Shown here: one piece after another, positions 15,622 to 42,000 of the stretch | Numbering within the stretch: position 1 is the first letter of the stretch | Layout: each line of letters begins with the position of its first letter | Virus record (IMG/VR): IMGVR_UViG_3300043119_000732 | Reading direction: 5' to 3' (one strand) | From: a virus | Lineage: Duplodnaviria > Heunggongvirae > Uroviricota > Caudoviricetes | DNA: 64,000 nucleotides | Program-made: the position numbers and the translations under genes | The notes under the pieces: model-generated | Seen by the model: only the letters and a program-made list of their open reading frames with translations | What the model was told of the DNA's origin: nothing | Databases searched by the model: none

Positions 15622-16269
15622 ATGAAAGTAGTACAACCAGAAACAAAGACAACCTTATTACTTAATAAGAATTATCAAGCATTTGCATTCTGTAATGCTC
15701 GGGCTGCCTTACGTCATCTTATAACTGGTAGAGCCTCTGGTATCGATGCATCCGGTAACTTAGTTTCATGGTCTGGTGCTGATCACGATAAAAACGGTGC
15801 TATAAGAGCTACATTATCTTGGTATGGTAATAGAGTAGAACTATTTGAAGATCAACCTTGTCTTAGATCTGCACCTAATCCCGTTACCGGTGAAGATACT
15901 AATTGGGCTATACCAACTATACTGAGATGTACACACCACTTCGGTTTTCACGTAAGAAAGAACGGTAATACATCATTAAAAATGTTATACAATTTATATA
16001 AAGGTGTGTGTCAATATTGTTTAGAGCGTATACCATATCACACAGCAACAAAAGATCATGCATTTCCAAAATCAAAAGGTGGTACTAACGATGATTTTAA
16101 TCTTGTTTTAGCTTGTAAGCAATGTAATAACGAAAAGGATAATATTTTCCCCTTTTTTAATGTAAATGGTGAAGAAGTAAAACCTAGACGTATTGCACCT
16201 CAGGCAATTTTAGTACAAAATACACCTATCTTAAGAGAAGAGTGGCGACCTTATTTATATCTTGAATAA
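15622..16269 (+). CDS. HNH homing endonuclease
   Basis: Contains CQYCLERIPYH...KDHAFPKSKGGTNDDFNLVLACKQCNNEKDN, an HNH motif with a zinc-binding Cys pair. Confidence 0.7.
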   Translation: MKVVQPETKTTLLLNKNYQAFAFCNARAALRHLITGRASGIDASGNLVSWSGADHDKNGAIRATLSWYGNRVELFEDQPCLRSAPNPVTGEDTNWAIPTILRCTHHFGFHVRKNGNTSLKMLYNLYKGVCQYCLERIPYHTATKDHAFPKSKGGTNDDFNLVLACKQCNNEKDNIFPFFNVNGEEVKPRRIAPQAILVQNTPILREEWRPYLYLE

Positions 16270-18921: not shown

Positions 18922-19015
18922 AGGAGTAAGGTAGCTGCTGGGTCGTGCTGCACTTGACTGTAAATCAAGTCCCTCTGGGTAAACATCGCAGGTTCAATTC
19001 CTGCTACTCCTACCA
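18922..19015 (+). tRNA. tRNA-Tyr (GTA), type II
   Basis: Acceptor aggagta/tactcct. Anticodon arm cttga-ctGTAaa-tcaag. Long variable arm. T-arm gcagg-ttcaatt-cctgc. CCA is encoded. Confidence 0.75.
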
Positions 19016-19021
19016 TTTTTC

Positions 19022-19107
19022 GCCGCTGTGACAATAATACAAATTGGTACAGTTACTACGTTGAGAACGTAGAGTTTTTGCAGATTCGAATTCTGCCAGC
19101 GGCACCA
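19022..19107 (+). tRNA. atypical tRNA, apparent anticodon GAG (Leu-like), expanded D region
   Basis: Perfect 7-bp acceptor gccgctg/cagcggc. Anticodon arm ctacg-ttGAGaa-cgtag. T-arm gcaga-ttcgaat-tctgc and CCA. The D region is 24-25 nt and no long variable arm is found. Confidence 0.45.
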
Positions 19108-19197
19108 TTTTTTTGGGAGCGACTACACCGCTTTTAGCTGAATATGCGACGAATATTGTCGATAAAACTCTCAAAAATTCATTTCTTGCCTTTTTGT

Positions 19198-19274
19198 TCC
19201 CTCATAACTTTAATTGGTAGAGTACCCGCCTTGTAAGCGGGAAGTTGTCAGTTCGAACCTGACTGGGGGATCCA
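19198..19274 (+). tRNA. tRNA-Thr (TGT)
   Basis: Acceptor tccctca/tggggga. Anticodon arm cccgc-ctTGTaa-gcggg. T-loop ttcgaac. CCA encoded. Confidence 0.75.
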
Positions 19275-19320
19275 CTTATTACTATCTCTTGAAAGCTCCA
19301 TTTTATGAATAAATAATTAA

Positions 19321-20124
19321 ATGTATAAATTCAACCAAGAAGAATTCGATAACGCGACAAATAAAGATTCAGTTACTTGCTGGTGTAAAGATTGTGGAAC
19401 AGAAACCAAAAGACTTAAAATTTATATTAAGCATAATATAAAACATAACGTAGATAAATTTGATTGTCCTTCTTGTAAAGAAAAAGAAAAGCAAAAAATA
19501 ATAGAAGAAAATACAAAAGTATGCCTGACATGTAACATTTCCTTTTTTAGTTACGAAAATAAATTTTGCTCTAATAGTTGTGCTGCTACAACAATCAACA
19601 AGACAAGAGTTTGTAACAAAGTTCATAAAAATACAGAAAATTTTATTAGCAATAATCGCTTCCTTAAAAGAGGTCCTGCATTAAGATATAAAGAATACAA
19701 AAAGTGTTTAAATTGTGAACGAGACTTCTTACCGGTAGCAAAAACGTCAATATTTTGTGAACAAATATGCTCTTCTGAACACAGAAAAAACCAGCGTGAA
19801 AAAGAATTAGAACCACTATTAATCGAAGGAAAGGTTATTTCTCAAAATATTGAAACAAATAACACAATATATAGAAGATACTTAATTCGCAAATTTGGAC
19901 CAAGGTGTATGAAATGTGGTTGGTCCGAAGTAAATCCTTTTTCAGGTAAAGTACCGATCGAGTTAGAACATAAAGATGGTAATTGCATTAATAACATTCC
20001 AGATAATTTAGAGTTGTTGTGTCCAAACTGCCATTCACTATCTCAATTTTATAAAGGTGCTAATAAACGAGAAGGTGGATCTCCAAGATATAAACAATGG
20101 AAAAAATACTTCTCTATCAAATAA
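19321..20124 (+). CDS. HNH homing endonuclease with N-terminal Cys-rich zinc-finger region, inserted in the tRNA cluster
   Basis: Multiple CxxC pairs are present. The C-terminal EHKDGNCINN...LCPNCH is an HNH motif. Confidence 0.6.
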   Translation: MYKFNQEEFDNATNKDSVTCWCKDCGTETKRLKIYIKHNIKHNVDKFDCPSCKEKEKQKIIEENTKVCLTCNISFFSYENKFCSNSCAATTINKTRVCNKVHKNTENFISNNRFLKRGPALRYKEYKKCLNCERDFLPVAKTSIFCEQICSSEHRKNQREKELEPLLIEGKVISQNIETNNTIYRRYLIRKFGPRCMKCGWSEVNPFSGKVPIELEHKDGNCINNIPDNLELLCPNCHSLSQFYKGANKREGGSPRYKQWKKYFSIK

Positions 20125-20190
20125 TTTTTAAGTCCAGACAGCAACCATTAAAATACTACAATAAGGTAAATAAATGGACTTAGTTTTTAC

Positions 20191-20266
20191 GATGGTATAG
20201 TGTAAAGGTTTGCACAGAACACTGTCACTGTTCAAGTCGGGGTTCAATTTCCCCGTACCATCGCCA
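20191..20266 (+). tRNA. tRNA-Asp (GTC)
   Basis: Acceptor gatggta/taccatc. Anticodon arm gaaca-ctGTCac-tgttc. T-arm cgggg-ttcaatt-tcccc. CCA encoded. Confidence 0.8.
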
Positions 20267-20273
20267 TTTTTAT

Positions 20274-20347
20274 CCTTCACAGGTGTTATAGTAGCATTTC
20301 CCGTTTGGGGCGGAAAGGACTCGGAGCGTAACCGAGGTGGAGGACCA
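20274..20347 (+). tRNA. tRNA-like gene with non-canonical T-loop (AGCGTAA); anticodon unresolved, possibly TTG
   Basis: 7-bp acceptor ccttcac/gtggagg with one G-U pair. T-arm ctcgg-agcgtaa-ccgag. The 3' end is CCA. Confidence 0.35.
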
Positions 20348-20354
20348 TTTTATT

Positions 20355-20440
20355 ACGGTGTTGGTTAAGCTGGAATTTGGCAGACAGTATGCATTTAGAC
20401 TGCATGAGCCTTGAAGGTTCAACTCCTTCACACCGTACCA
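20355..20440 (+). tRNA. atypical tRNA, apparent anticodon TAG (Leu-like), expanded D region
   Basis: Perfect acceptor acggtgt/acaccgt. Anticodon arm atgca-ttTAGac-tgcat. T-arm gaagg-ttcaact-ccttc and CCA. The D region is about 25 nt and contains ggaatttggcagac, similar to Leu D-arms. Confidence 0.45.
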
Positions 20441-20447
20441 ATTTTAT

Positions 20448-20521
20448 TGAGATGTCGTATAAAAGTATTACCTCGGACTTTGACCCCGAAGAAGTTGGAG
20501 CGTTACCAGCCATCTCAGCCA
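20448..20521 (+). tRNA. tRNA-like gene, apparent anticodon TTG (Gln?), non-canonical T-loop (AGCGTTA)
   Basis: Acceptor tgagatg/catctca. Anticodon loop ctTTGac. T-arm gttgg-agcgtta-ccagc. CCA encoded. Confidence 0.4.
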
Positions 20522-20527
20522 TTTTAT

Positions 20528-20621
20528 AGTCAGGTAATGTAATTGGAAGCATCGACGGCCTTATAAACCGTGAGCACTAGATTGGTGCCGAGCGAGGGTT
20601 CAATTCCCTCCCTGACTACCA
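20528..20621 (+). tRNA. type II tRNA (long variable arm), isotype unresolved (loop ccttataaa)
   Basis: Acceptor agtcagg/cctgact. D-arm atg-taattggaag-cat. Two internal hairpins. Canonical T-arm gaggg-ttcaatt-ccctc. CCA encoded. Confidence 0.5.
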
Positions 20622-20622
20622 T

Positions 20623-20698
20623 GGTAGAGAGGCCGAACGGTTTAGGCAAGAGTTTCATAAGCTCTTATTTGTGAGTTCAAGTCTCACCTCTACCACCA
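20623..20698 (+). tRNA. tRNA-Met (CAT)
   Basis: Acceptor ggtagag/ctctacc. Anticodon arm aagagt-ttCATaa-gctctt. T-arm gtgag-ttcaagt-ctcac. CCA encoded. Confidence 0.7.
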
Positions 20699-20766
20699 TA
20701 TTTAATAATGTAACGGTAAGAACGCTTACAAGTCAATATTTCAGATTAGTTACATCGCCAATTTAT

Positions 20767-20838
20767 TGCAGTGAGGCAGGTTGCCCAAGGAGTCTCATAA
20801 GCTACCTTCTCTGGTTTCGAGTACCAGCGCTGCACCCA
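20767..20838 (+). tRNA. short atypical tRNA with CAT anticodon loop (Met/Ile2-like)
   Basis: Perfect acceptor tgcagtg/cgctgca. Anticodon loop ctCATaa. T-arm ctggt-ttcgagt-accag. CCA encoded. The D region is shortened. Confidence 0.4.
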
Positions 20839-20975
20839 ATTTAAGTTCATCCAGCAATACTAAATGTCATTGAATACAACAAAAAGCTGAACTTAGTAAT
20901 AAAAGTCCGCACAGCAATCAAAAGCAATTGAATATTAATCAATACAAGCTAAAAACGGACTTTGAAATTTTTTAT

Positions 20976-21052
20976 GCCGATGTCGTCTAATTGGTTAGGA
21001 CACCTCCCTTTCACGGAGAAGCTTGGCGGTTCGATCCCGCTCATCGGTACCA
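20976..21052 (+). tRNA. tRNA-Glu (TTC)
   Basis: Acceptor gccgatg/catcggt. Anticodon arm ctcc-ctTTCac-ggag. T-arm ggcgg-ttcgatc-ccgct. CCA encoded. Confidence 0.65.
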
Positions 21053-21058
21053 TTTTAT

Positions 21059-21134
21059 GTCTCGTTGGTCGAGTGGTTACAGGCTTTTCTCTGCAAAAGA
21101 AATTACATAGGTTCAATTCCTATACGAGACTCCA
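21059..21134 (+). tRNA. tRNA-Cys (GCA)
   Basis: Acceptor gtctcgt/acgagac. Anticodon arm tttct-ctGCAaa-agaaa. T-arm atagg-ttcaatt-cctat. CCA encoded. Confidence 0.7.
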
Positions 21135-21143
21135 TTTTTTTAC

Positions 21144-21222
21144 GCCCTAGTAGCCCAATTGGTAGTATGGCCAGAGTCTTAAACACTCTTCAGTGTGAGT
21201 TCGAATCTCACCTAGGGTACCA
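21144..21222 (+). tRNA. class-I tRNA with TAA anticodon (Leu-decoding anticodon on a short-variable-arm scaffold)
   Basis: Acceptor gccctag/ctagggt. Anticodon arm agagt-ctTAAac-actct. Variable loop only 5 nt. T-arm gtgag-ttcgaat-ctcac. CCA encoded. Confidence 0.5.
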
Positions 21223-21261
21223 CTTTAAGTATATACAGCAAAAATAAAACGCAATCATCAT

Positions 21262-21302
21262 ATACAGATGCTAGTGTGGGTTCAATTCCCACCTCTCCAC
21301 CC
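21262..21302 (+). pseudogene. tRNA 3'-half fragment (T-arm plus acceptor 3' strand plus CCA) with no matching 5' half
   Basis: gtggg-ttcaatt-cccac is followed by ctctcca-c-cca. The complementary tggagag lies 12 nt downstream, not upstream. Confidence 0.4.
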
Positions 21303-21371
21303 AATTTATACTTTATTGGAGAGTAGTGTAACGGTAGCACAGTAAACGCAAAAAATATACTTAGTTTTTTA

Positions 21372-21458
21372 CGCGTCGGTTCCCTTAGCGGCGAAAGGTC
21401 GAGCCTTTTAAGCTCACGGTTTAAACCCATCGAGGGTTCGAGTCCCTCCCGACGCACC
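21372..21458 (+). tRNA. type II tRNA with apparent TTT anticodon loop (cttttaa); identity uncertain
   Basis: Acceptor gcgtcgg/ccgacgc. Anticodon stem gagc/gctc with loop ctTTTaa. Variable arm contains ggtttaaacc. T-arm gaggg-ttcgagt-ccctc. CCA encoded. Confidence 0.45.
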
Positions 21459-21463
21459 ATTTT

Positions 21464-21538
21464 TGCTCCTATAGTCTAATGGATAGGCACCGGTCTTCTA
21501 AGCCGTATTATGTAGGTTCGAGCCCTACTGGGAGCGCC
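21464..21538 (+). tRNA. tRNA-Arg (TCT)
   Basis: Acceptor gctccta/tgggagc. Anticodon loop ctTCTaa. T-arm gtagg-ttcgagc-cctac. CCA encoded. Confidence 0.6.
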
Positions 21539-21696
21539 ATTTTTGTTCATGTACCAAGCGTACAGTGAGCTTTCGGGTCTGTTATGCAGACCCAGTCTCT
21601 TTATCTAAAGATGCGGGTTCAAGGTCCGCTCCTCTCTTACCCAATAGAACAAGGAGGATAGTTCAACATGGTAGAACATTAGATATAAATTTTTAT

Positions 21697-21771
21697 TGCC
21701 TGCTCGTATTCTGGCGAGTACCCCTGACTGTTAATCAGGTGAGCGTGGATCGTAACCACGGCGGGCAGCCA
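21697..21771 (+). tRNA. tRNA-Asn (GTT) with non-canonical T-loop (ATCGTAA)
   Basis: Acceptor tgcctgc/gcgggca. Anticodon arm cctga-ctGTTaa-tcagg. T-arm cgtgg-atcgtaa-ccacg. CCA encoded. Confidence 0.6.
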
Positions 21772-21778
21772 TTTTTAT

Positions 21779-21871
21779 GGAGAGTTGGCCGAGTACGGTT
21801 TATGGCATCTATCTTGAAAATAGAAGGGTCCTCAAAAGCCCCGACGGGTTCAAATCCCTCACTCTCCTCCA
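21779..21871 (+). tRNA. tRNA-Ser (TGA), type II
   Basis: Acceptor ggagagt/actctcc. Anticodon arm tctat-ctTGAaa-ataga. Long variable arm. T-arm acggg-ttcaaat-ccctc. CCA encoded. Confidence 0.75.
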
Positions 21872-21931
21872 CTTTAACATACGTACTATACCTCTTGTTA
21901 TCAATGTGAATAATGGGTACGTGTAATTTAT

Positions 21932-22007
21932 GCATCGTTCGCATAGTGGTTAGTGCGCCTCTCTTCCAAAGAGGATTCCGTGAGTTCGAATCTCACACGA
22001 TGCTCCA
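21932..22007 (+). tRNA. tRNA-Gly (TCC)
   Basis: Acceptor gcatcgt/acgatgc. Anticodon arm cctct-ctTCCaa-agagg. T-arm gtgag-ttcgaat-ctcac. CCA encoded. Confidence 0.8.
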
Positions 22008-22097
22008 TTTTGCGAAAGCAACTAACCTATAATACTCAGCGCTAAGTCAGGTATAAGGAAATTATAGGAAAGCAAAGACCTAATGTTGCTACCTTTA

Positions 22098-22178
22098 TGC
22101 ATCAGTGCCCGGAGTTCGTTTAACGGTCCTCGCTCTTAACGAGATTTACATGGGTTAAAATCCCATCTGATGCACCAA
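22098..22178 (+). tRNA. tRNA-Lys (CTT)-like with non-canonical T-loop (TTAAAAT)
   Basis: Acceptor tgcatca/tgatgca. Anticodon arm ctcg-ctCTTaa-cgag. T-arm atggg-ttaaaat-cccat. CCA encoded. The D-loop is enlarged. Confidence 0.5.
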
Positions 22179-22183
22179 TTTAC

Positions 22184-22261
22184 AGGAGATGGGACTGCAG
22201 GGTTGGTCACCGCTTTTACATAGCGATTAACAGAAGGGTTCGAGCCCCTTATCTCCTACCA
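22184..22261 (+). tRNA. tRNA-Val (TAC)
   Basis: Acceptor aggagat/atctcct. Anticodon loop ttTACat. T-arm aaggg-ttcgagc-ccctt. CCA encoded. Confidence 0.65.
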
Positions 22262-22386
22262 TTTTCTCAGGTTGTACGGTAGAAATCCGGAAAAACTAGA
22301 CCCTTTTCGATTGGGCTCTGGTAGAGGGCATCCAAACGTAATAGTAGGATTGTAAGATTGACGACCCTTACTTGGGACCAATTTAT

Positions 22387-22773
22387 GGGGGTGTACAGGA
22401 TTCGACTTAATTCGATACAGCTCTATTTGCAAGCAGAGATTGATATTATCTCTATAACTAGTATCAAAACTACAAATGGCAACATTGTAAATTACATCAA
22501 GAACTTCTTCAAGAGCGCTGCTCCTGTTGAGGCCCTTGCATTCGCTGCTTAATAAACAGCGATCGAAACTAGATTTGATTCTCACTAAAATTTAATTTCG
22601 TTATATAGTGAGATTAGAGAGTCAGTTATACATTGGGATTCTCTAGTATATAAATGTATACCACTATCTACAGGTTGTAGTATACCTTAAAATAGTTATT
22701 AAATACTACTAAGCTTGTAGATAATAGTGAGGTTTGGGTTAAACACGCGGGTTCAATTCCCGCCACCTCCACC
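22387..22773 (+). ncRNA. ssrA: tmRNA (SsrA), about 387 nt, phage-encoded
   Basis: The 5' end ggggg-tgtacaggattcgac matches the tmRNA signature GGGG…GGATTCGAC. The 3' end is a tRNA-like T-arm gcggg-ttcaatt-cccgc with acceptor cacctcc-a-CCA pairing the 5' gggggtg. Internal reading frame …KNFFKSAAPVEALAFAA then TAATAA, ending in the Ala-rich, degradation-tag-like C-terminus. Confidence 0.8.
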
Positions 22774-22778
22774 ATTTT

Positions 22779-23069
22779 ATGAATAGAAACGAAACGCTTG
22801 AACGTATTAAAGTCAAAATGAAGGAAAAAAATCCATCTATAAAAGATGTTGAATTCGTTGCAAAACGAGATCCTATAAATTTTGGAGCAATAACATATTC
22901 CGTTTTTATAAATGGAGAAAAAAGTCAGGATAGATTACTTGGTGAATTAATAGATGATTTAGAGTTTGTTGGATGTCATTATGCTCCAATAAACGAAAAA
23001 AGAATAGATGTAGTAGAAGAACTTGCTACATTATTATGTAATGTATATGATAGTTCGGAATTTAAATAA
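22779..23069 (+). CDS. hypothetical protein
   Basis: 96 aa ORF immediately after the tmRNA. Confidence 0.4.
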   Translation: MNRNETLERIKVKMKEKNPSIKDVEFVAKRDPINFGAITYSVFINGEKSQDRLLGELIDDLEFVGCHYAPINEKRIDVVEELATLLCNVYDSSEFK

Positions 23070-23261
23070 TTTTTGTTAACAAAGAAAACACATCGATTTC
23101 CAATAGTCGTGATGATCAAAGAGTGCAGTAAAAGTCTGAATATTGGAATAATTTAGGGAAAGCCGCCGTTGATCCAACGAAGAGAAGGCTTGACAGTTCG
23201 GAGAGATTGAACGACATTGCAGTGGATGAGTTGACACTGTAGATTATTAAATAACTCATAT

Positions 23262-23337
23262 TGGAGTTTGGTGAAGCAGGTGCTCACGTCTGCATGAAGA
23301 GCAGAAGATCTCGGATCGATACCGAGAGCTCCAGCCA
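23262..23337 (+). tRNA. tRNA-Phe (GAA) with non-canonical T-loop (ATCGATA)
   Basis: Acceptor tggagtt/agctcca. Anticodon arm tctgc-atGAAga-gcaga. T-arm ctcgg-atcgata-ccgag. CCA encoded. Confidence 0.6.
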
Positions 23338-23338
23338 C

Positions 23339-23412
23339 TGGCCTATAACACAATGATAGTGTGCTTGCCTGATTAGCGAGAAATGGGGGTTTAATTCCCT
23401 CTAGGCCAACCA
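23339..23412 (+). tRNA. tRNA-Ile (GAT)
   Basis: Acceptor tggccta/taggcca. Anticodon arm cttgc-ctGATta-gcgag. T-arm ggggg-tttaatt-ccctc. CCA encoded. Confidence 0.55.
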
Positions 23413-23415
23413 TTT

Positions 23416-23489
23416 ATCCAGCCATGTTCCAAGGTAGGCGATAGAGTCTCCAAAACTCAATGCGGTAAGTTCGATTCTTACGCTGGATG
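23416..23489 (+). tRNA. tRNA-Trp (CCA)
   Basis: Perfect acceptor atccagc/gctggat. Anticodon loop ctCCAaa. Canonical T-arm gtaag-ttcgatt-cttac. The 3' CCA is not encoded. Confidence 0.65.
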
Positions 23490-23515
23490 TTTTTATTTCT
23501 TAACTAAATATAATA

Positions 23516-23845
23516 GTGGGTAAACACATGATACAAAGTATGTTATCACGCGAAGGTAGCGTACTTAAAAAGTATGAAGATTATATAACACCTGATAGTA
23601 ATCTTTATATTAACCCTGATAATCCGGATTCTAATATAATCAGAAGTTTAGCTAAACGTAAAAATAAAGAAGAGACAGTTAAAAAGCATTATGCAGTTGC
23701 TGCAAAAGCAGGTAATTTATATACAAAAAATATACTTAAATTAGCTGAAGAGCAAGGAGTGAAACTAAAGGTAATACATCTTAATATATACCCTGGCGGT
23801 GCAACATCTTTCATGTATAGAATAGCTTTGCAAAAGATAGATTAA
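23516..23845 (+). CDS. hypothetical protein
   Basis: 109 aa ORF. Confidence 0.4.
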   Translation: MGKHMIQSMLSREGSVLKKYEDYITPDSNLYINPDNPDSNIIRSLAKRKNKEETVKKHYAVAAKAGNLYTKNILKLAEEQGVKLKVIHLNIYPGGATSFMYRIALQKID

Positions 23846-23856
23846 TAAATAATTAA

Positions 23857-24189
23857 ATGAATTTTGATCTTCTAATAGAAAAGACTCTATCCAACCTTGA
23901 TGCAAAGAATCAAGAATTTTTCAATGTTAGATCTAAAGGTGCAAAAAAGATAGAAGCATCTGCAAGAGCAAAAGGTGGTCCATCACTGCTTACAGCTCAA
24001 CACTTTAAAGCAAAAGAAATACCATACAAAGAATGTATTAAAAATATAGAGAATCCAAAATTTATTGAATCTAAAGCAGATCAATGCTTTTCTAAACTGA
24101 GAAGTTGGAAGAGTATGACACAGGCTGAATTTCAAAAAGTAACAGGTGAACTTGAAGCATACGGTGAGTGCCTTATTAAGCTAAAATAA
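23857..24189 (+). CDS. hypothetical protein
   Basis: 110 aa ORF. Confidence 0.4.
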   Translation: MNFDLLIEKTLSNLDAKNQEFFNVRSKGAKKIEASARAKGGPSLLTAQHFKAKEIPYKECIKNIENPKFIESKADQCFSKLRSWKSMTQAEFQKVTGELEAYGECLIKLK

Positions 24190-24192
24190 TTT

Positions 24193-24287
24193 GGAGGGTA
24201 GGTAGATATTGTTCTTGCTACATTTGTTTGCTAAACAAAACCGGACCTTAAAAGCCGGTGAGGGTTAAATTCCCTCACCCTCCGCCA
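24193..24287 (+). tRNA. tRNA-Ser (GCT), type II
   Basis: Acceptor ggagggt/accctcc. D-stem gtag/ctac. Anticodon arm tttgt-ttGCTaa-acaaa. Long variable arm accgg…ccggt. T-arm gaggg-ttaaatt-ccctc. CCA encoded. Confidence 0.65.
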
Positions 24288-24295
24288 TTTTTGTA

Positions 24296-24721
24296 TTGAT
24301 ACTGTATCTAATAAATAATAGTATGGAAGACAAGATTATAAGTGAAAAGTATCTAACTGAAATAGCGTTTACAAAAAGATACGATACAACAGATGATTAT
24401 TATATAATGTTCTGGATGGCTGATGATTACGACAACACTATACAACGTCTTTTTAGTAAAAGTTTAGAAGATACAGTAAGTATTGTCGGTTTGAATAGAC
24501 ACGATAAAAAGCAAGCAATCATTAAAAAACTAGAAGAAAAACCTCTAAACATATTTTACGCTATAGATACTTTTGAAGATAGTAGAGAGATAACGATGAT
24601 ATTAGTAGGTACAAACCCTAAGACTACAGATAAGATGAGTATAGAAATTAACGATAAATATGAAAACGATGCACCCAGTTTCTTTAAATTTCTAAGAGCA
24701 GAAGGTCTAAGAATAAAATGA
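24296..24721 (+). CDS. hypothetical protein
   Basis: 141 aa ORF. Confidence 0.4.
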   Translation: MILYLINNSMEDKIISEKYLTEIAFTKRYDTTDDYYIMFWMADDYDNTIQRLFSKSLEDTVSIVGLNRHDKKQAIIKKLEEKPLNIFYAIDTFEDSREITMILVGTNPKTTDKMSIEINDKYENDAPSFFKFLRAEGLRIK

Positions 24722-24906
24722 TCACGTTTAGTTTATTTTTTGAAGCCAATATACATAAAGCTAGACATCCTGGAAGATTTAAAGCAAAGGTAACTAAACG
24801 CTTTGGTAAAGGTAAGATAACTTGTTCTAAAGCAAGATCTTTTACTTCAAGTAGAGACACACTTACTAAGAAACAAGCAAATAGATTTATTAATTACCAC
24901 TGTTAG
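24718..24906 (+). CDS. hypothetical small basic protein
   Basis: 62 aa ORF, K/R-rich. Confidence 0.3.
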   Translation: MITFSLFFEANIHKARHPGRFKAKVTKRFGKGKITCSKARSFTSSRDTLTKKQANRFINYHC

Positions 24907-24929
24907 AAGGAACAAAAATAAAATTTGGT

Positions 24930-25277
24930 ATGGGAAAAGCTAGATACAGATGTCCTTTACTCGATAAACCAAATCAATGGCATGTTGTTCTTGATATAGA
25001 ACAACAACCTTTCAATTGGGTGTATCCAGATTATAAATGTCGACGTCTCTCTGTTACAAAAAAAGATGATGGTACGTACTTACCTTTGGTCAATGGATCT
25101 AATGATTTCCGTAACGTGCCATATGGTGAGACGTTTACAACAAGTAGCTTAGAAGAAGCTCAAAAGTTTTTATTTACATATATAGATAATATAATCGAGA
25201 GAGATAAAAGGCAAGACAAATCTCAATTAAAAGAGTATCTTAAAACGTATGTTGATAGAAAGCTTAAAGAGCAATAA
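24930..25277 (+). CDS. hypothetical protein
   Basis: 115 aa ORF. Confidence 0.4.
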   Translation: MGKARYRCPLLDKPNQWHVVLDIEQQPFNWVYPDYKCRRLSVTKKDDGTYLPLVNGSNDFRNVPYGETFTTSSLEEAQKFLFTYIDNIIERDKRQDKSQLKEYLKTYVDRKLKEQ

Positions 25278-25315
25278 TTTTTAGTAGTCTCTCTGTGCCT
25301 CTCATGCATAATATA

Positions 25316-25343
25316 ATGTAAGTAATTGCGCAATTACTTACAT
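25316..25343. promoter_or_regulatory. perfect 28-nt palindrome (14-bp stem hairpin)
   Basis: atgtaagtaattgc|gcaattacttacat sits between the last protein gene and the next tRNA block. Confidence 0.5.
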
Positions 25344-25378
25344 TATAGCATTGAAGCATAATTCAGGGAGAGTTTATT

Positions 25379-25454
25379 GGGGAGTTAGCTCATTCAGTAG
25401 AGCAATTGCTTTGCAAGCAATAGGTGACCGGAGCAAAGCCGGTATTCTCCACCA
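25379..25454 (+). tRNA. tRNA-Ala (TGC) with non-canonical T-loop (AGCAAAG)
   Basis: Acceptor ggggagt/attctcc. D-arm gctc-attcagtag-agc. Anticodon arm attgc-ttTGCaa-gcaat. T-arm accgg-agcaaag-ccggt. CCA encoded. Confidence 0.6.
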
Positions 25455-25460
25455 CTTTAT

Positions 25461-25536
25461 GTCTCGTTAGTTCAATGGATCAGAACCTTCGGCTACGGAC
25501 CGAACGATGGAAGTTCGACTCTTCCACGGGACACCA
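25461..25536 (+). tRNA. tRNA-Arg (ACG)
   Basis: Acceptor gtctcgt/acgggac. Anticodon arm ttcgg-ctACGga-ccgaa. T-arm ggaag-ttcgact-cttcc. CCA encoded. Confidence 0.75.
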
Positions 25537-25568
25537 CTTTCTCGAAGACTAATTATCTTCGAGTATGT

Positions 25569-25644
25569 TCGATCGTGACGCCGTTTAGTAAGGCAGAGAA
25601 GCTGGCAAAGTGTCTGCCCGCGGGTGCGAATCCCGTCGGTCGAA
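25569..25644 (+). tRNA. tRNA-like gene, isotype unresolved (oversized anticodon-region loop)
   Basis: Acceptor tcgatcg/cggtcga. T-arm gcggg-tgcgaat-cccgt. The central stem gcaga/tctgc encloses a 15-nt loop. No encoded CCA. Confidence 0.3.
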
Positions 25645-25764
25645 CTACAAATTTGAGAATAGAACAATGGTAGGTGAAACCAAGATGTATATCTTTAGAT
25701 TTAAGTCTGTTCTTTCTTTTCAGAAAGTCTAATCACCGATACTACTGAAAAGTTCTCAATTTAT

Positions 25765-25843
25765 GGGGACATCGTCTAAAAACGTAAAGGACATACCTCT
25801 CTCACAGGTAAAATGCCGGCTCGCATTCCGGTTGCCCCCACCA
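25765..25843 (+). tRNA. tRNA-like, apparent anticodon CTC (Glu-like), non-canonical T-loop
   Basis: Acceptor ggggaca/tgccccc with one mismatch. Anticodon arm tacct-ctCTCac-aggta. T-arm ccgg-ctcgcat-tccgg. CCA encoded. Confidence 0.4.
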
Positions 25844-25918
25844 CTTTCTTTCGGCCATCTGGCACCAAGGCATGCTGCCGTTGAGTTCGGCGGATGGAAT
25901 TGCAATCCGAAAGAATAT

Positions 25919-25994
25919 GCACCAGTGACCGGAAAGGCTACGGCTCAGATTGCAACCCTGATTCATGTCGGTTCAAATCCGACCTGGTGCTCCA
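25919..25994 (+). tRNA. tRNA with GCA anticodon (second Cys-like copy)
   Basis: Acceptor gcaccag/ctggtgc. Anticodon arm tcag-ttGCAac-ctga. T-arm gtcgg-ttcaaat-ccgac. CCA encoded. Confidence 0.55.
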
Positions 25995-26297
25995 CTTTCG
26001 GACCAGAATTGAAGCTGGTGGTGTAAACCTTGGAACAACTGAATGACTTCAATTTCAGCCGTATAGGGGAAGAAACTTACCGAAAGCTTTTATCAGGAGA
26101 TGATGTAGTGATTAGCATACTAGGCTGTGAACCTGGGTGGCAGAGTTTGATTCTCTGGCTCCTGACCAATTTGACGGTAATGGCTGAGTTCGACTCAACA
26201 AGGCAAGTCCAGCAGTTCGCCTTCTGTAACCGTAACCTCCAAGCCTTATGGCTTCGGATATGGCCTTCGTTCCGTTCGCCCGATAAGTAACGGATAT

Positions 26298-26374
26298 GCT
26301 CAGGTAGCCCAACGGTAGAGGCGTCGGTCTTAGAAGCCGAATAGTGATGGGTTCAAATCCCTCCCTGAGCACCA
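26298..26374 (+). tRNA. class-I tRNA with TAG anticodon (Leu-decoding anticodon, short variable arm)
   Basis: Acceptor gctcagg/cctgagc. Anticodon arm tcggt-ctTAGaa-gccga. 5-nt variable loop. T-arm atggg-ttcaaat-ccctc. CCA encoded. Confidence 0.55.
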
Positions 26375-35343: not shown

Positions 35344-36918
35344 ATGCTACAATTCAATAAAGTAAATGCTACCCCTGCTAAACTCGATCAATGGGTTCAA
35401 CTTGGTGTAAATGTTCTTCTTATTGGCGAGAAGGGTGTTGGCAAGACACAGCGCGTTATAGATGCATTTAAACGCAATAATCTTAAGTTTGCTTATTTTT
35501 CTGGTTCTACTCTTGATCCTTGGATTCATTTGATTGGTATCCCAAAAGTAAGAGGTGCAGAAGGTCAAGAGAAGATGGATTTTATTCTACCTTCTAACCT
35601 TGATGAAGATATTGAAGCATTATTTATTGACGAATATAATAGAACTCATAAACTTGTAAAGAACGCTCTTCTTGAGCTTCAACAGTTTAAGTCAATTAAC
35701 GGTCGTAAGTTTCCTAAGCTTAAGATGGTTTGGGCTGCTATTAATCCACCTAAGTCTGATAGCGATGCTAACTCACAAGACTATGATGTAGAGCAACTTG
35801 ATCCTGCACAACTCGACCGTTTTCATGTTATTGTTGAGCTTCCAAATGCTCCTGATAAGAAATACTTTGTAGATAAGTATGGTGATCATCATGGTAATAT
35901 TCTTATTAACTGGTGGAAAGATCAATCAGATGATGCTAAGAAGATTCTAAGTCCTCGTAGATTAGATTATATTGGAGAGTTTTTCAATAAAGGAGGAGAT
36001 GTATATGATCTTCTACCGGTATCAGCTAATACAAAAGATCTTGTAACTAAACTTGCTACCAAGAAAGAAGACGCATTGTTACATAGTGTATTTGCTAATC
36101 CTACAGAAGATGTAATGAAGCTATTCTTACTCGGTGATCAGAACTATCTCAAGTATAAGGATAAGTTGAATGAGCCTCGTTTCTGGAAATTCCATAAATA
36201 CCTCAAGCAAGAGTATATCTGTGCTAATATAAAGAATAGTGGTATTTATAAGAACTATGCTATATTACAGGGGTTAAAGAAGGATGTAACCTTTACTGCT
36301 GCAATTACAGCGGTATCAAATTCAACTATGAATAATGATTTATTAAAGGTTCTTAAGCTACTAGAAGCGCAAAATCTCGATATTAGTAAGTTTGAGATTA
36401 CAACTCAATCTACCAACAACCTACTTACATCTTTACCACCTTCAGTCACAACAAACGATTTATTCTCAGTTAATCCTGCTATATTAGTAGCAGGCAAAAC
36501 TAAGAAGATAGATTTTACTGTATATAGAAGTCTAGGTACTAACGTTTATATAAGTCTAATGGAGGACTTAGTTAAGTCTTGGAGTAATGTACCCAATCAT
36601 TATGATGTAATTAACTTTACATGTACTATGGTTGGATCGTTTCAAACCACCACATTTACTAAATATAAATCTAAACTACTACCTCTAATTGGTACATGCT
36701 GTATGTTAGCTAAACAAAAGCTAAATACAGATGAGCAAAAGCAAATAAGATCCCAGATACATATTAATAAGGCTAAGATTGGAGATACACACTATAACGA
36801 ATTTATAAACTATTTACGGGGTGATTCAGATGAAACGAGTGTTATTATATCTGAAGACTTTGAAAAGAAAGTAAACGAGGCTAGTATGCTTGTTGCTCTA
36901 TCTTCTAATATAAAATGA
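35344..36918 (+). CDS. AAA+ ATPase, MoxR/CbbQ/CobS-like (AAA_5 family)
   Basis: Walker A LLIGEKGVGKTQ. Walker B ALFIDE. 524 aa. Followed directly by VWA-domain proteins. Confidence 0.6.
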   Translation: MLQFNKVNATPAKLDQWVQLGVNVLLIGEKGVGKTQRVIDAFKRNNLKFAYFSGSTLDPWIHLIGIPKVRGAEGQEKMDFILPSNLDEDIEALFIDEYNRTHKLVKNALLELQQFKSINGRKFPKLKMVWAAINPPKSDSDANSQDYDVEQLDPAQLDRFHVIVELPNAPDKKYFVDKYGDHHGNILINWWKDQSDDAKKILSPRRLDYIGEFFNKGGDVYDLLPVSANTKDLVTKLATKKEDALLHSVFANPTEDVMKLFLLGDQNYLKYKDKLNEPRFWKFHKYLKQEYICANIKNSGIYKNYAILQGLKKDVTFTAAITAVSNSTMNNDLLKVLKLLEAQNLDISKFEITTQSTNNLLTSLPPSVTTNDLFSVNPAILVAGKTKKIDFTVYRSLGTNVYISLMEDLVKSWSNVPNHYDVINFTCTMVGSFQTTTFTKYKSKLLPLIGTCCMLAKQKLNTDEQKQIRSQIHINKAKIGDTHYNEFINYLRGDSDETSVIISEDFEKKVNEASMLVALSSNIK

Positions 36919-38682: not shown

Positions 38683-40212
38683 ATGGCAACTAAAAAAACA
38701 ATCAAAAAGACAGCTCCTAAGCAAAACGCACTTATCAGTGCTTTAACTACAGGAGATATCAAGACGCATAATGGTGCGGTAAGTCATTCGACTACTGGTA
38801 CTTCTTTGCTCGATTTTTTTGGTAAAGGTGGTTCAATGCGTTCACAACCAGATGATGCATCTATTACACTTTTCCGCTCCGCTTATAATGAGGATAAGAC
38901 TATCGCTCTTAAGATTCTCTTCTATCTAGTAGATGTACGTGAAGGTCAAGGTGAGCGTAAGCTCTTCCGTAACTGCTTTAAGTGGCTTGCGCAAAACGAT
39001 GAGAAAGTAGCTAAGAACCTCTTGATCCAGATCCCTGAGTTTACTCGTTGGGACAACGTACTTGAGACGCTTGAAGGTACATCTCTTGAAAAAATCGCAC
39101 TTAAATTTGTTGCTGATAAACTTATTGAAGATGCATCTGAAAAGAATCCTTCACTATGTGCTAAATGGGCACCAAGTGAACAGGCTTCATCTTCTGTAAC
39201 CAAACGTCTTGCAAAGAAAGTACGTACTACTTTAGATTACTCTCCAAAGCAATATCGTAAGCTTCTATCAGCTCTTCGTAAAAAGATCGATGTAGTGGAA
39301 CGCAAAATGTGTGTAGGTGAATGGGACAAGATCAATTATCCTGCGGTACCTTCAAAGGCTGCAAGCACTTACCGTAAAGCATTCAAAGAACATGACGGTG
39401 ACCGTTACTCAAAGTTTTTAACTAATGTCGAGAAAGGTGAAGAAAAGATTAACGCTTCAGTATTGTACCCATATGATATTGTACGTTCAGTTCGTAATAT
39501 ACGGTCCGTAGATCGTACTCTAGAGGCCCAATGGAAGGCCTTACCAGATTATCTTGCCGGTAATAAGCATAATGGTATTGTTGTAGCTGACGTTTCAGCT
39601 TCAATGGACTCTTGTAACTATTATAATGCTAATATTGGTAATAACATAGCACCTATTGATGTTGCTGTATCAATTGCAATTTATTTTGCTGAACGAAACG
39701 AAGGTGCATTCAAAGATCATTTTATGATCTTCTCCCATAATGCTAAACTTTTAAAGATTACAGGTACAAGTCTAATACAAAATGTAACTGATGTTCTTGG
39801 TAGACGTGAGGTTGCTAATACTAATCTACAATCTGTATTTGATCTTATACTTGATAAAGGCGTAAGTAATAAAGTGCCGCAATCTGAAATGCCATCCCAT
39901 GTATATATTATCTCAGATATGCAATTTGATTGTGCTACCGGGCCAGACTCTCTTAATAGCGGTGAAGTAACTAATCATGCTGCTATTAAGGCAAAGTACG
40001 CTGCAGCTGGTTACAACGTGCCTCAAATTGTATATTGGAATGTTAACTCTTATAGTGATGTACCGGTTAAATATGACGATAAAGGTACTTGCTTAGTATC
40101 AGGCTGTTCACCTTCAATCTTGAAGAGTGTTTTGTCTAACAAATCAACAACACCTTATAACATGATGATCGATACAGTTTGTAGTGACCGTTATGAAGTA
40201 ATCAAAGCTTAA
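38683..40212 (+). CDS. TROVE-domain / VWA protein, Ro60 (Rsr)-like
   Basis: 509 aa. The N-terminal LLDFFGKGGSMRS resembles the Ro60 FG-x-GG-T/S motif. Central VVADVSASMDS is a DxSxS MIDAS motif. The architecture matches Ro60 (about 530 aa torus plus vWA). Confidence 0.5.
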   Translation: MATKKTIKKTAPKQNALISALTTGDIKTHNGAVSHSTTGTSLLDFFGKGGSMRSQPDDASITLFRSAYNEDKTIALKILFYLVDVREGQGERKLFRNCFKWLAQNDEKVAKNLLIQIPEFTRWDNVLETLEGTSLEKIALKFVADKLIEDASEKNPSLCAKWAPSEQASSSVTKRLAKKVRTTLDYSPKQYRKLLSALRKKIDVVERKMCVGEWDKINYPAVPSKAASTYRKAFKEHDGDRYSKFLTNVEKGEEKINASVLYPYDIVRSVRNIRSVDRTLEAQWKALPDYLAGNKHNGIVVADVSASMDSCNYYNANIGNNIAPIDVAVSIAIYFAERNEGAFKDHFMIFSHNAKLLKITGTSLIQNVTDVLGRREVANTNLQSVFDLILDKGVSNKVPQSEMPSHVYIISDMQFDCATGPDSLNSGEVTNHAAIKAKYAAAGYNVPQIVYWNVNSYSDVPVKYDDKGTCLVSGCSPSILKSVLSNKSTTPYNMMIDTVCSDRYEVIKA

Positions 40213-40647: not shown

Positions 40648-40969
40648 AATAATTGAACAGTATACTGATAAAGAGCTTGATGAAAGCTTTTGTAGAGATG
40701 TAGCTAATATACCTTACGAGTATACTGAGCAGGTAGATATAGACTCTCGATGTATATATGAATTTCCTCCACCTAGCTTTTGCCATAACTATATCAGTGG
40801 TGAATTATGGAAGCAGTTAAATGTCTGTGAAAGATATGAGTTTTTCAAGCAAGGGAAGTTGTATACAATAAGACTGTACGAAAATAGTAATGTTTATGAA
40901 TATCAACATGAAACTGTAGGTAGAGCTGTTGTAATTGCATTACTTAAAAAAGAATATAAAATCGCATGA
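40637..40969 (+). CDS. hypothetical protein (start moved to internal ATG to limit overlap)
   Basis: ORF 40613..40969; the MKSKIIEQ… start at 40637 is preferred. Confidence 0.35.
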   Translation: MKSKIIEQYTDKELDESFCRDVANIPYEYTEQVDIDSRCIYEFPPPSFCHNYISGELWKQLNVCERYEFFKQGKLYTIRLYENSNVYEYQHETVGRAVVIALLKKEYKIA

Positions 40970-42000
40970 AAGAAGCACTTTATTATAATCAAGTAACACT
41001 TATACCTAATAAGTGTGTAGTTAACTCACGCTCTCAATGTGATACTACGATTAATTTTTGTGGTTACATATTTAACTTACCAGTAGTACCTGCAAACATG
41101 GCATCGGTTATCGACATAAATAATGCTAAATGGTTAGCGTTTAATAAGCATTTCTATATCTATCATCGCTTTGGAGATACTCGTGATTTTATTAGTCGTT
41201 CTAATTTTGAGCGTTGGCCTCTCGTAAGTATTTCTATTGGTGTACAACCTAGTGATACTATGCTAATTGATTGGCTTGAGATTACTAAATATAAAGTAGA
41301 CTTTATTACAATTGATATTGCTCACGGTTTTGCAGAGTCTGTTGCAGTGATGGTTAGGTATATCAAAAATAAGTTACCCAATACTAAAGTAATCGCTGGT
41401 AATATATGGGGTGATAAACAGTCTATAGAATTTCTACAAAACGCAGGAGCAGATGCAATTAAAGTAGGTTTAAGTTGCGGTGCAGGATGCTCTACATTTA
41501 ATGAGACTGGATTTGGTTCACCAATGTTTAGTGCTGCTTTTGAAGCTGGTGTTAACGCAAAGGTACCAGTAATTCTTGATGGAGGTATTAGACATAATGG
41601 AGATATTGCAAAAGCTATTGTTGCATTCTTATCCAATCAGTTTCAAGCTGTTTATGGAAATCCTTTTAAATGCGGTAATAAACAATGGAGAGAACCACTT
41701 AACGTTCCGATGATTATGGCTGGTAGTATCTTTGCTGCTTGTATTGATGCTCCTGGTGATGATATTATTATTAATGGAAGAGTATGGAAAAATTACTACG
41801 GATCAGCTTCTGCTGAATCCAAAAAGAAGACCGGTCAAGAAGTAAAACACGTTGAAGGTAAGAGCATTGTTCTTGAGGGTAATAGTTTAACTTATGCAGA
41901 AAAATATGATCAAATTAAAGATGCTGTTCAAAGTCAAATTTCATATGCAGGTGGTAATGATTTAACTGCTTTAAAAGATGTTCAATGGAGAAAGATATGA
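40966..42000 (+). CDS. IMP dehydrogenase / GMP reductase family protein (TIM barrel, no obvious CBS pair)
   Basis: KVGLSCGAGCSTFNETGFGSPMFSAA…ILDGGIRHNGDIAKAI matches the IMPDH/GuaC catalytic-loop and phosphate-binding motifs. Confidence 0.6.
   Translation: MKEALYYNQVTLIPNKCVVNSRSQCDTTINFCGYIFNLPVVPANMASVIDINNAKWLAFNKHFYIYHRFGDTRDFISRSNFERWPLVSISIGVQPSDTMLIDWLEITKYKVDFITIDIAHGFAESVAVMVRYIKNKLPNTKVIAGNIWGDKQSIEFLQNAGADAIKVGLSCGAGCSTFNETGFGSPMFSAAFEAGVNAKVPVILDGGIRHNGDIAKAIVAFLSNQFQAVYGNPFKCGNKQWREPLNVPMIMAGSIFAACIDAPGDDIIINGRVWKNYYGSASAESKKKTGQEVKHVEGKSIVLEGNSLTYAEKYDQIKDAVQSQISYAGGNDLTALKDVQWRKI

Follow-up and report, generated by a model that had tools for sequence, protein, structure and literature searches.

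Co-variation of T-loop and D-loop points to a compensated alternative elbow in phage and SAR11 tRNAs

We describe a group of unusual tRNA genes in a window of 64,000 nucleotides, the whole stretch of DNA analysed here, from the IMG/VR virus record IMGVR_UViG_3300043119_000732 (Caudoviricetes). About one third of the tRNAs in its tRNA gene cluster (10 of about 30) have a T-loop that departs from TTC. Judging from their sequences, we consider it probable that these are functional phage elongator tRNAs with a compensated alternative elbow, shared with many phages and with bacteria of the SAR11 group. Textbooks present G18, G19, T54, pseudouridine 55 (Psi55) and C56 as almost universal in bacterial tRNAs, and these bases are what tRNA finders, modification enzymes and certain immune nucleases depend on. 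The canonical elbow of a bacterial elongator tRNA comprises the pairs G18-Psi55, G19-C56, T54-A58 and U8-A14. The variants of the window and of other phages keep the cloverleaf, the 7-nucleotide T-loop, a 5-bp T stem with G53-C61, a Watson-Crick 19:56 pair, the CCA end and normal anticodon loops, but replace the invariant bases in matched sets, including A8-U14.

Results

T-loop changes are matched at their D-loop partners

The original prediction had singled out six of these genes (Pro, Gln, Asn, Phe, Ala and Lys-CUU) as sharing one recurrent aberrant T-loop. The recurrence was borne out, but what recurs is three separable classes and not one loop. In the first class G55 occurs with A18; in the second A54 occurs with U58 or A58 while G18-G19 is retained; in the third the 19:56 Watson-Crick pair is swapped. 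Within the window, the G55 tRNAs (Pro, Gln, Ala) have AG at the usual G18 G19 site, the A54/U55 tRNAs (Asn, Phe) retain GG, the U56 tRNAs (His, Ile-GAU) have GA in the D-loop, and the A56 tRNAs (Lys-CUU, Ser-GCU) have GT without GG; these coupling rules are obeyed by 10 of the 10 window variants. A54 is present in five of the roughly 30 window tRNAs. Lys-CUU, which had been counted as an A54 tRNA, is not one: it retains T54 and T55 and its sole change is C56 to A. The six listed genes do belong to the variant set, which is larger, as Ile(GAU), His, Ser(GCU) and Glu(CUC) are also non-TTC.

The same couplings were found, nearly without exception, in a sample of 1242 distinct phage tRNAs with a 7-nucleotide T-loop and CCA, drawn from 80 IMG/VR loci encoding a relative of the virion protein next to the cluster and from loci found by sequence patterns. 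Positions 54 and 58 were U-A in 1036 of these tRNAs, A-U in 146, A-A in 29, C-A in 14 and G-G in 9, and positions 8 and 14 were U-A in 741 and A-U in 31. In 7-nucleotide D-loops only, positions 18 and 55 were G-U (242), A-G (53), G-C (6) or other combinations (3), and positions 19 and 56 were G-C (288), A-U (6) or U-A (4). At any D-loop length, UC at positions 55-56 was accompanied by GG in the D-loop in 1019 of 1039 tRNAs, GC by AG in 144 of 147, UU by GA in 31 of 32, UA by GT in 8 of 8 and UG by GC in 5 of 5, and 19:56 is Watson-Crick in all four combinations. Fisher tests gave p = 6e-156 for A54 with U58, 4e-133 for G55 with AG, 5e-29 for U56 with GA, 2e-21 for A8 with U14, and, for A56 with GT, 4e-07 across all tRNAs and 2e-08 in the reduced set; the values remain extreme when tRNAs matching the search patterns are left out. 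Each coupling class covers 6-15 isotypes and 8-45 loci. A54 is further coupled to A60 in the phage tRNAs, and canonical loops have a pyrimidine at that position.

The co-variation at D-loop positions 18/19, which the original prediction had named as a test, is therefore strongly positive, and altered T-loop/D-loop tertiary pairing, the first of the alternatives it offered, is what the data show. Its argument that the loops are not products of random decay also holds, since the altered loop bases vary in step with the bases they contact in the tertiary structure. An extended Watson-Crick helix between D-loop and T-loop (U20-G55) was considered as another form of pairing and rejected, since position 20 is free (T, C, G or A) in the AGCGTAA class.

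We propose that the alternative elbow would arise through three swaps, which may occur singly or together. In the first, G18-Psi55 would be replaced by A18-G55 (Pro, Gln, Ala). In the second, the reverse-Hoogsteen pair T54-A58 would give way to A54-U58 (Pro, Gln, Asn) or A54-A58 (Phe, Ala), usually with A60. In the third, the outer pair G19-C56 would become A19-U56 (His, Ile-GAU) or U19-A56 (Lys-CUU, Ser-GCU). For A18-G55 and A54-U58, it is the geometry of the hydrogen bonding that we infer. The L-shape should persist, because 19:56 stays Watson-Crick and the stems stay paired, and from established tRNA structure the flat stacking face would be preserved with it. This face of the elbow, formed by 19:56, is the stacking surface for RNase P, the ribosome and T-box leaders. 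The variant tRNAs would then be processed, presumably charged, and used normally. Going by the genes, 5-methyluridine 54 (m5U54) is certainly impossible where position 54 is A, as is Psi55 where position 55 is G, and these variants would offer no UUC motif to the T-loop-directed enzymes that read it.

The variant genes are well formed

tRNA genes were called with ARAGORN, at default settings and then at a relaxed threshold, and scored with the Rfam tRNA model RF00005 (gathering score 29 bits). ARAGORN confirmed the six genes of the original prediction, with the T-loop letters that had been read by eye (Table 1). All six have 7/7 acceptor pairs (G-U counted), 5-bp T stems and an encoded CCA, as had been described. 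The 5-bp anticodon stems attributed to all of them are present in Asn, Phe and Ala, and those of Pro, Gln and Lys-CUU contain one mismatch each (C-A in Pro). Each of the six forms a cloverleaf with a 7-nucleotide T-loop, a 7-nucleotide anticodon loop, U33 and a purine at 37; the conserved set G18 G19 / T54 Psi55 C56 R57 A58 is absent, with co-varying alternatives in its place. In tRNA-Pro, A8 in addition occurs with U14, and the D-loop GT of Lys-CUU fits U19-A56.

Identity elements, assessed by the isotype rules established for E. coli, are kept: G3:U70 in Ala, U1-A72 and G73 in Gln, A73 in Pro and G73 in Asn. G73 is atypical for tRNA-Phe, but it is common to the Phe tRNAs of related phages, which are likewise non-U54. 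For five amino acids (Pro, Gln, Asn, Phe and Ala) this phage has no tRNA gene besides the variant one. The Glu(CUC)-like gene, with its 8-nucleotide T-loop, is less certain to be functional than the other variants.

Rfam scores are mixed: Ala, Phe, Lys, Gln and Asn lie above the Rfam gathering score and Pro has no match, canonical neighbouring tRNAs reaching 54-64 bits. A misfolding artefact of the tRNA finders, in which another register would restore a canonical T-loop, is scarcely credible, and nothing was found in its favour. TTC[AG]A is absent from the six variant sequences over their whole length and the minimum-energy fold reproduces the T hairpin as called for five of them, so that a canonical loop is not to be rescued by refolding; in the Rfam alignment of tRNA-Asn, moreover, ATCGTAA sits in the T-loop columns.

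Distribution among phages and signs of selection

The exact T arm of the window tRNA-Pro (17 nucleotides, CTCGGAGCGTAACCGAG) occurs in seven IMG/VR contigs, in six of which it belongs to tRNA genes of other anticodons (CUA, CAU, GAA) with different acceptor and anticodon stems. That this T arm might be a specific protein-binding site was rejected when a wider scan gave many T stems with the same loop. Scanning IMG/VR for GGAGCGTAACC-N11-CCA returned at least 129 matches, at least about 116 of them in complete cloverleaves, which represent at least 105 distinct genes and all 20 amino-acid types. TAG is found in the D arm in 100 of 101 cases among the matches listed, the D arm being absent from the search pattern. 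In 28 distinct Phe(GAA) genes with the AGCGTAA module, 98.9% of stem positions pair, compensatory double changes occur in 17 of 20 pairs (0 of 500 shuffles reached as high a value), and A14, U17, A18, G19 and U20 are invariant. On a 147-kb IMG/VR contig (L082, positions 2874-2947) we observed a suppressor-type CUA tRNA with D-loop AATAGTA, T arm CTCGG AGCGTAA CCGAG and G73. Because this tRNA carries the variant, the alternative elbow appears, from its sequence, to be used in stop-codon-reading phage tRNAs as well.

About 20% of the tRNAs in the sampled phage arrays have a variant elbow, and the affected isotypes vary among related phages: Pro, Gln, Ala, Asn and Phe in the window, Gly, Asn, His and Lys in locus L001, and Asp, Lys and Phe in locus L010. 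A restriction to SAR11-type hosts was considered and rejected: the variant fraction is equal, about 22%, in phage arrays with an ordinary C73-type tRNA-His, which extends the phenomenon beyond such hosts. As a cultured control, phage T5 has a large array with HNH genes, one A19-U56 swap (Ile-GAU) and three A8-U14 swaps, as in the variant sets, but differs in having no A54 and no G55 among its approximately 25 predicted tRNAs.

Chromosomal tRNAs of SAR11 bacteria

An origin of the module specific to phages was rejected when a scan for AATAGTA-N29-30-GGAGCGTAACC, covering one genome per bacterial and archaeal species, matched SAR11 chromosomes. Among the matches listed, 111 of 120 have Pelagibacter, Pelagibacteraceae or Pelagibacterales in their titles, complete chromosomes included, and the matches listed comprise tRNA-Val(GAC) at at least 90 loci, tRNA-His at at least 18 and tRNA-Thr(GGT) at at least 6. 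The nine non-Pelagibacter matches listed are three alphaproteobacterial contigs with the same tRNA-Thr(GGT) (L254, L277, L286), four metagenome-bin contigs dense in tRNA genes and phage-derived in appearance (L209, L264, L311, L319), a 682-bp Herbiconiux scaffold (L244) and one match without a cloverleaf (L275).

SAR11 Val, His and some Thr tRNAs combine D-loop AATAGTA with T-loop AGCGTAA, the same module as in the phages, and encode CCA; the gene at 3334-3405 of L262, one of the Pelagibacteraceae loci (L208-L327), exemplifies a chromosomal tRNA without the canonical GG / T-Psi-C elbow. These variant genes adjoin a canonical tRNA-Met and, in one complete genome, lie about 2.4 kb from the RNase P RNA gene. 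SAR11 tRNA-Phe(GAA) has TGCGAAT with AGGAGTA, again G55 with A18. Orthologues of SAR11 tRNA-Thr(GGT) show four elbow states, one canonical and three variant, always as matched sets (T-loop/D-loop: TTCGATT/AATGGCA, GTCAGTA/AATGGCA, AGCGTAA/AATAGTA and TGCAAGT/AGGTAGTA).

The T-loop of the SAR11 module, A54 G55 C56 G57 U58 W59 A60, is found in the window in Pro and Gln, Ala sharing only A54 G55 C56. Its D-loop, A18 G19 without GG and usually with U before, has counterparts in Pro, Gln (with A before AG) and Ala. The SAR11 isotypes affected (Val, His, Thr, Phe) differ from the Pro, Gln, Ala, Asn and Phe of the window, and the A54-U55 class (ATCG...) of the window was not seen in a small SAR11 sample. 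No sequence-level kinship was found between SAR11 variant tRNAs and window tRNAs, and a blastn comparison of SAR11 tRNA-Val with a cultured-phage collection of 50,697 records gave no match.

Genomic setting, host clues and neighbouring genes

The cluster includes about 30 tRNA genes, which together serve all 20 amino acids and nearly all of which encode CCA, and a transfer-messenger RNA (tmRNA) gene. The window has a G+C content of about 33% and codes for a myovirus-type baseplate wedge protein, tail fibre proteins and virion proteins (Pfam and PHROGs scans of part of the window proteins). Its proteins are recorded only in JGI/IMG and Logan metagenome assemblies, the contig measuring 209 kb, and the virion protein adjoining the cluster shares about 62% identity with proteins from T4-like cyanophages and from a SAR116 phage. 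When the tRNA region was compared with the 50,697 cultured-phage records by megablast and blastn, no relative was detected, only scattered single-tRNA matches to canonical members. The window tRNA-His has A73, with T and not G at position -1, as does SAR11 tRNA-His in having A73 without G-1. RRCH alphaproteobacteria and most strains of SAR11 share this derived identity type (PMC3937112). Together with base composition, the trait suggests a host of SAR11 or RRCH alphaproteobacterial type.

Table 1. Coordinates of the variant tRNA genes and of other features of the window (nt, nucleotides; aa, amino acids).
Feature	Coordinates	Strand	Detection	T-loop	D-loop	Details
tRNA gene cluster with tmRNA gene	18922..26374	+	ARAGORN, Rfam
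tRNA-Pro(UGG)	20274..20347	+	ARAGORN default	AGCGTAA (A54 G55 C56 G57 U58 A59 A60)	TATAGTA (A18 G19)
tRNA-Gln(UUG)	20448..20521	+	ARAGORN relaxed threshold; Rfam 37.0 bits	AGCGTTA	AAAAGTA (A18 G19)
tRNA-Asn(GUU)	21697..21771	+	ARAGORN default; Rfam 32.9 bits	ATCGTAA (A54 with U58, A60)	TCTGGCGA (G18 G19 retained)
tRNA-Lys(CUU)	22099..22177	+	ARAGORN relaxed threshold; Rfam 45.8 bits	TTAAAAT (U54 U55 A56)	GAGTTCGTTTA (GT, without GG)
tRNA-Phe(GAA)	23262..23337	+	ARAGORN default; Rfam 47.7 bits	ATCGATA (A54, A58, A60)	AGCAGGTGC (GG retained)
tRNA-Ile(GAU)	23339..23412	+		TTTAATT (U56)	AATGATA (G18 A19)	19:56 swapped to A-U
tRNA-Ser(GCU)	24193..24287	+	ARAGORN default	TTAAATT (A56)	GATATTGTTCT (GT, without GG)
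tRNA-Ala(UGC)	25379..25454	+	ARAGORN default; Rfam 53.5 bits	AGCAAAG (A54 G55 C56 A57 A58; G60)	ATTCAGTA (A18 G19)
tRNA-Glu(CUC)-like gene	25765..25843	+	Rfam 38.1 bits	CTCGCATT (8 nt)	without GG
tRNA-His(GUG)	26094..26168	+		TTTGATT (U56)	AGTGATTA (G18 A19)
tRNA-like gene, apparent anticodon GAG	19022-19107	+	Rfam, partial, 21.8 bits	TTCGAAT	aberrant D arm	86 nt; 7/7 acceptor
Leu(CAG) tRNA-like gene	20355-20440	+
CAU tRNA-like gene	20767-20838	+				72 nt; 3' end CCCA
UAU tRNA, called Ile	20528-20621	+				94 nt; long extra arm
UUU tRNA, called Lys	21373-21459	+				87 nt; long extra arm
tRNA 3' half	21276-21303	+				T arm, acceptor 3' strand and CCA (GTGGGTTCAATTCCCAC CTCTCCA C CCA)
tRNA 5' half	21317-21345	+				TGGAGAG TA GTGT AACGGTA GCAC
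tmRNA gene	22387-22774	+	Rfam RF00023, 133.9 bits (threshold 47)			one-piece, full-length
HNH homing-endonuclease gene, beside cluster	15622-16269	+
HNH homing-endonuclease gene, within cluster	19321-20124	+
YrlA (Y-RNA-like) match	21583-21705	+	28.8 bits (threshold 69)
MoxR-like ATPase gene	35344-36918		source annotation
Putative metallopeptidase gene	36915-38168
Gene for 509-aa protein	38683-40212	+	PHROGs RNA-binding (phrog_850, E 3e-139); Pfam DUF2828 and DUF7788
IMPDH/GMP-reductase-like gene	40966-42000
Ribose-phosphate pyrophosphokinase gene (NAD salvage)	48833-49699	+
Nicotinamide phosphoribosyltransferase gene (NAD salvage)	51835-53421	+
ATP-dependent DNA ligase gene	57156-58328

Several further RNA genes of the cluster stand out. 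Three tRNA-like genes (GAG, Leu-CAG and CAU in Table 1) are not called by ARAGORN at default settings, and two tRNAs, with UAU and UUU anticodons, have a long extra arm with an anticodon unexpected for type II tRNAs. Two tRNA halves stand in the order 3' half, then 5' half: the 5' half begins 13 nucleotides downstream of the 3' half, is perfectly complementary to it, and AAACGCAA...ATATAC repeats flank each half. This arrangement may reflect either circular permutation of a tRNA gene or rearrangement of a tandem pair. The tmRNA gene, which is absent from the ARAGORN output, has a tag frame that by eye ends in ...AAPVEALAFAA, followed by two stop codons. The HNH genes recall phage T5, whose tRNA region is likewise interrupted by HNH (heg) genes.

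A weak, sub-threshold YrlA match lies within the tRNA cluster, about 17 kb from the gene for the 509-aa protein, upstream of which are the MoxR-like ATPase and metallopeptidase genes; a Ro-like ribonucleoprotein system in the window is possible from these annotations. The window also has genes for ribose-phosphate pyrophosphokinase and nicotinamide phosphoribosyltransferase (NAD salvage) and for an ATP-dependent DNA ligase, and an IMPDH/GMP-reductase-like gene (Table 1).

Discussion

The variant elbow is a heritable state common to environmental phage tRNA arrays and to SAR11 chromosomes. Several points weigh against the view that all of these genes encode functional tRNAs with a compensated elbow. 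Positions 18 and 19 can be assigned unambiguously for 7-nucleotide D-loops only, longer loops having been scored by the presence of the dinucleotide. Because the sequences are phylogenetically related, fewer independent events underlie the p-values than these suggest, and the variant frequency of about 20% is not a general phage figure, because loci were chosen as relatives or as AGCGTAA carriers. tRNA-Pro has no match to the Rfam tRNA model even at E<=10, and with one stem mismatch and two G-U pairs in the D stem this gene could be impaired. The host assignment, finally, is drawn from one tRNA-His trait and base composition.

These features of tRNA-Pro, the scores of only 33-37 bits for Asn and Gln, and the anticodon-stem mismatches of Pro, Gln and Lys-CUU are what a reading of the variants as pseudogenes or decaying copies, with odd loops as damage, would draw on. 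That reading is nevertheless very improbable and is largely refuted by the co-variation: every altered loop base has a corresponding change in its tertiary partner and the stems carry compensatory changes. The acceptor stems are undamaged, as are U33, purine 37, CCA and the identity elements, no second copy exists for Pro, Gln, Asn, Phe and Ala, and the same loops occur in conserved chromosomal tRNAs of SAR11.

Some of these features have been seen in other tRNAs. The elbow of eukaryotic initiator tRNA has A20, A54 and A60 (PMC10602860; PMC7912444). Eukaryotic initiator tRNA-Met (A54, A60, m1A58) and the phage variants have in common A54, A60 and the A54-A58 pair, and some phage loops (ATCGAAA) are identical to the initiator T-loop; in the window, A54 with A60 is present in Pro, Gln, Asn and Phe, Ala having G60. 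However, most phage A54 loops have U58 and not A58, the tRNAs are elongators of bacterial viruses, and G55/A18 has no counterpart in eukaryotic initiators. Nor does the initiator combination of A20 with a CAU anticodon occur: in Asn and Phe position 20 is occupied by C or U, and the anticodons belong to elongators. Animal mitochondrial tRNAs have lost the GG and TPsiC consensus, often together with the contacts or whole arms. Whereas they lose contacts, the phage variants replace them with matched alternatives and keep normal loop sizes.

Why the variant is kept is a separate matter, and the two explanations considered below are non-exclusive, both being about cause and not structure. One is relaxed constraint: in hosts that have lost, or do not rely on, the m5U54 methyltransferase, the Psi55 synthase and the methyltransferase for 2'-O-methylguanosine 18 (Gm18), positions U54, U55 and G18 would be free to change as long as their partners match, and phage tRNAs made in a burst may also fold better without those modifications. 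We regard this as a possible, still tentative explanation. The drift of SAR11 Thr(GGT) among four partner-matched elbow states, the many loop sequences tolerated and the variation in affected isotypes among related phages are all in keeping with it. Against it stands the recurrence of exactly AGCGTAA with a TAG D-loop across all 20 types in many phages, which argues for a preferred discrete solution over free drift.

The other explanation is escape from a nuclease, in which the variant T-loop would resist a factor reading U54-U55-C56 and supply the phage with uncleavable tRNAs; it would be compatible with the proposed elbow structure. There is a precedent in CbCash, a CRISPR-associated Schlafen nuclease whose main cleavage site in tRNAs is the UUC of the T-loop and whose cleavage is abolished by a single U54 or U55 mutation (PMC13462974). 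Evasion of a T-loop nuclease is plausible in so far as cleavage of this type needs both U54 and U55; whether phage tRNAs are targets of CbCash was left open by its authors in their 2026 study (PMC13462974). The contrast between about 20% variants in the sampled arrays and no A54 or G55 in T5 would also fit. A second precedent lies in the escape of phage tRNAs from anticodon nucleases, reportedly well established, for example in work on PARIS and on anticodon-loop mutations. The cases said to be known are T5 tRNA-Lys against PARIS, T5 tRNA-Tyr against retron Eco7 PtuAB, and anticodon-loop variants of mycobacteriophages. Defence-escaping phage tRNAs and the window variants alike depart from the host consensus where a nuclease could read, but the known cases concern the anticodon loop or stem, and the window variants, whose resistance is hypothetical, the T-loop; no T-loop escape case was found in the literature searched.

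Several observations speak against escape, which we hold to be an unlikely cause. About two thirds of the window tRNAs keep TTC, so that the greater part of them would still fall to a T-loop nuclease of broad action, and the affected isotypes vary among the window, L001 and L010. The U56/A19 and A56/U19 classes retain U54-U55. The module is found in essential tRNAs encoded by SAR11 chromosomes, for which evasion by a phage has no relevance, and its being common to at least 105 phage genes and to SAR11 chromosomes weakens any purely phage-versus-host recognition account. For a requirement for a phage modification enzyme, which the original prediction had also raised, there was no evidence: Pfam and PHROGs scans of some of the window proteins found no tRNA-modifying enzyme or tRNA nuclease. 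A broader form of the idea of escape, which we put forward as speculation and likewise think improbable, is that a modification-free elbow (A18-G55, A54-U58, A60) spread through phage arrays and into SAR11 and hides tRNAs from enzymes or nucleases that read T-Psi-C, such as Schlafen nucleases of the Cash type. If this were true, the T-loop would be a previously unrecognised phage-host battleground beside the anticodon loop.

Searches of open-access papers and bioRxiv preprints yielded no account of this elbow for either phages or SAR11, earlier notice elsewhere being possible, and the study of SAR11 tRNA signatures makes no mention of T-loop, A54, G55 or elbow (PMC3937112). Standard covariance models under-score such genes or miss them, as they do tRNA-Pro outright, so phage tRNA counts are probably underestimates. 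The co-varying sets provide natural double-mutant-cycle data for 18:55, 19:56, 54:58 and 8:14, tRNAs without m5U54 and Psi55 are predicted, and the variants are ready substrates for the question of whether phage tRNAs escape T-loop-cleaving Schlafen nucleases. Present in at least 100 phage tRNA genes and in core tRNAs of a bacterial group that ranks among the most abundant in the ocean, these loops are a widespread, internally compensated natural alternative at positions that are usually treated as invariant.

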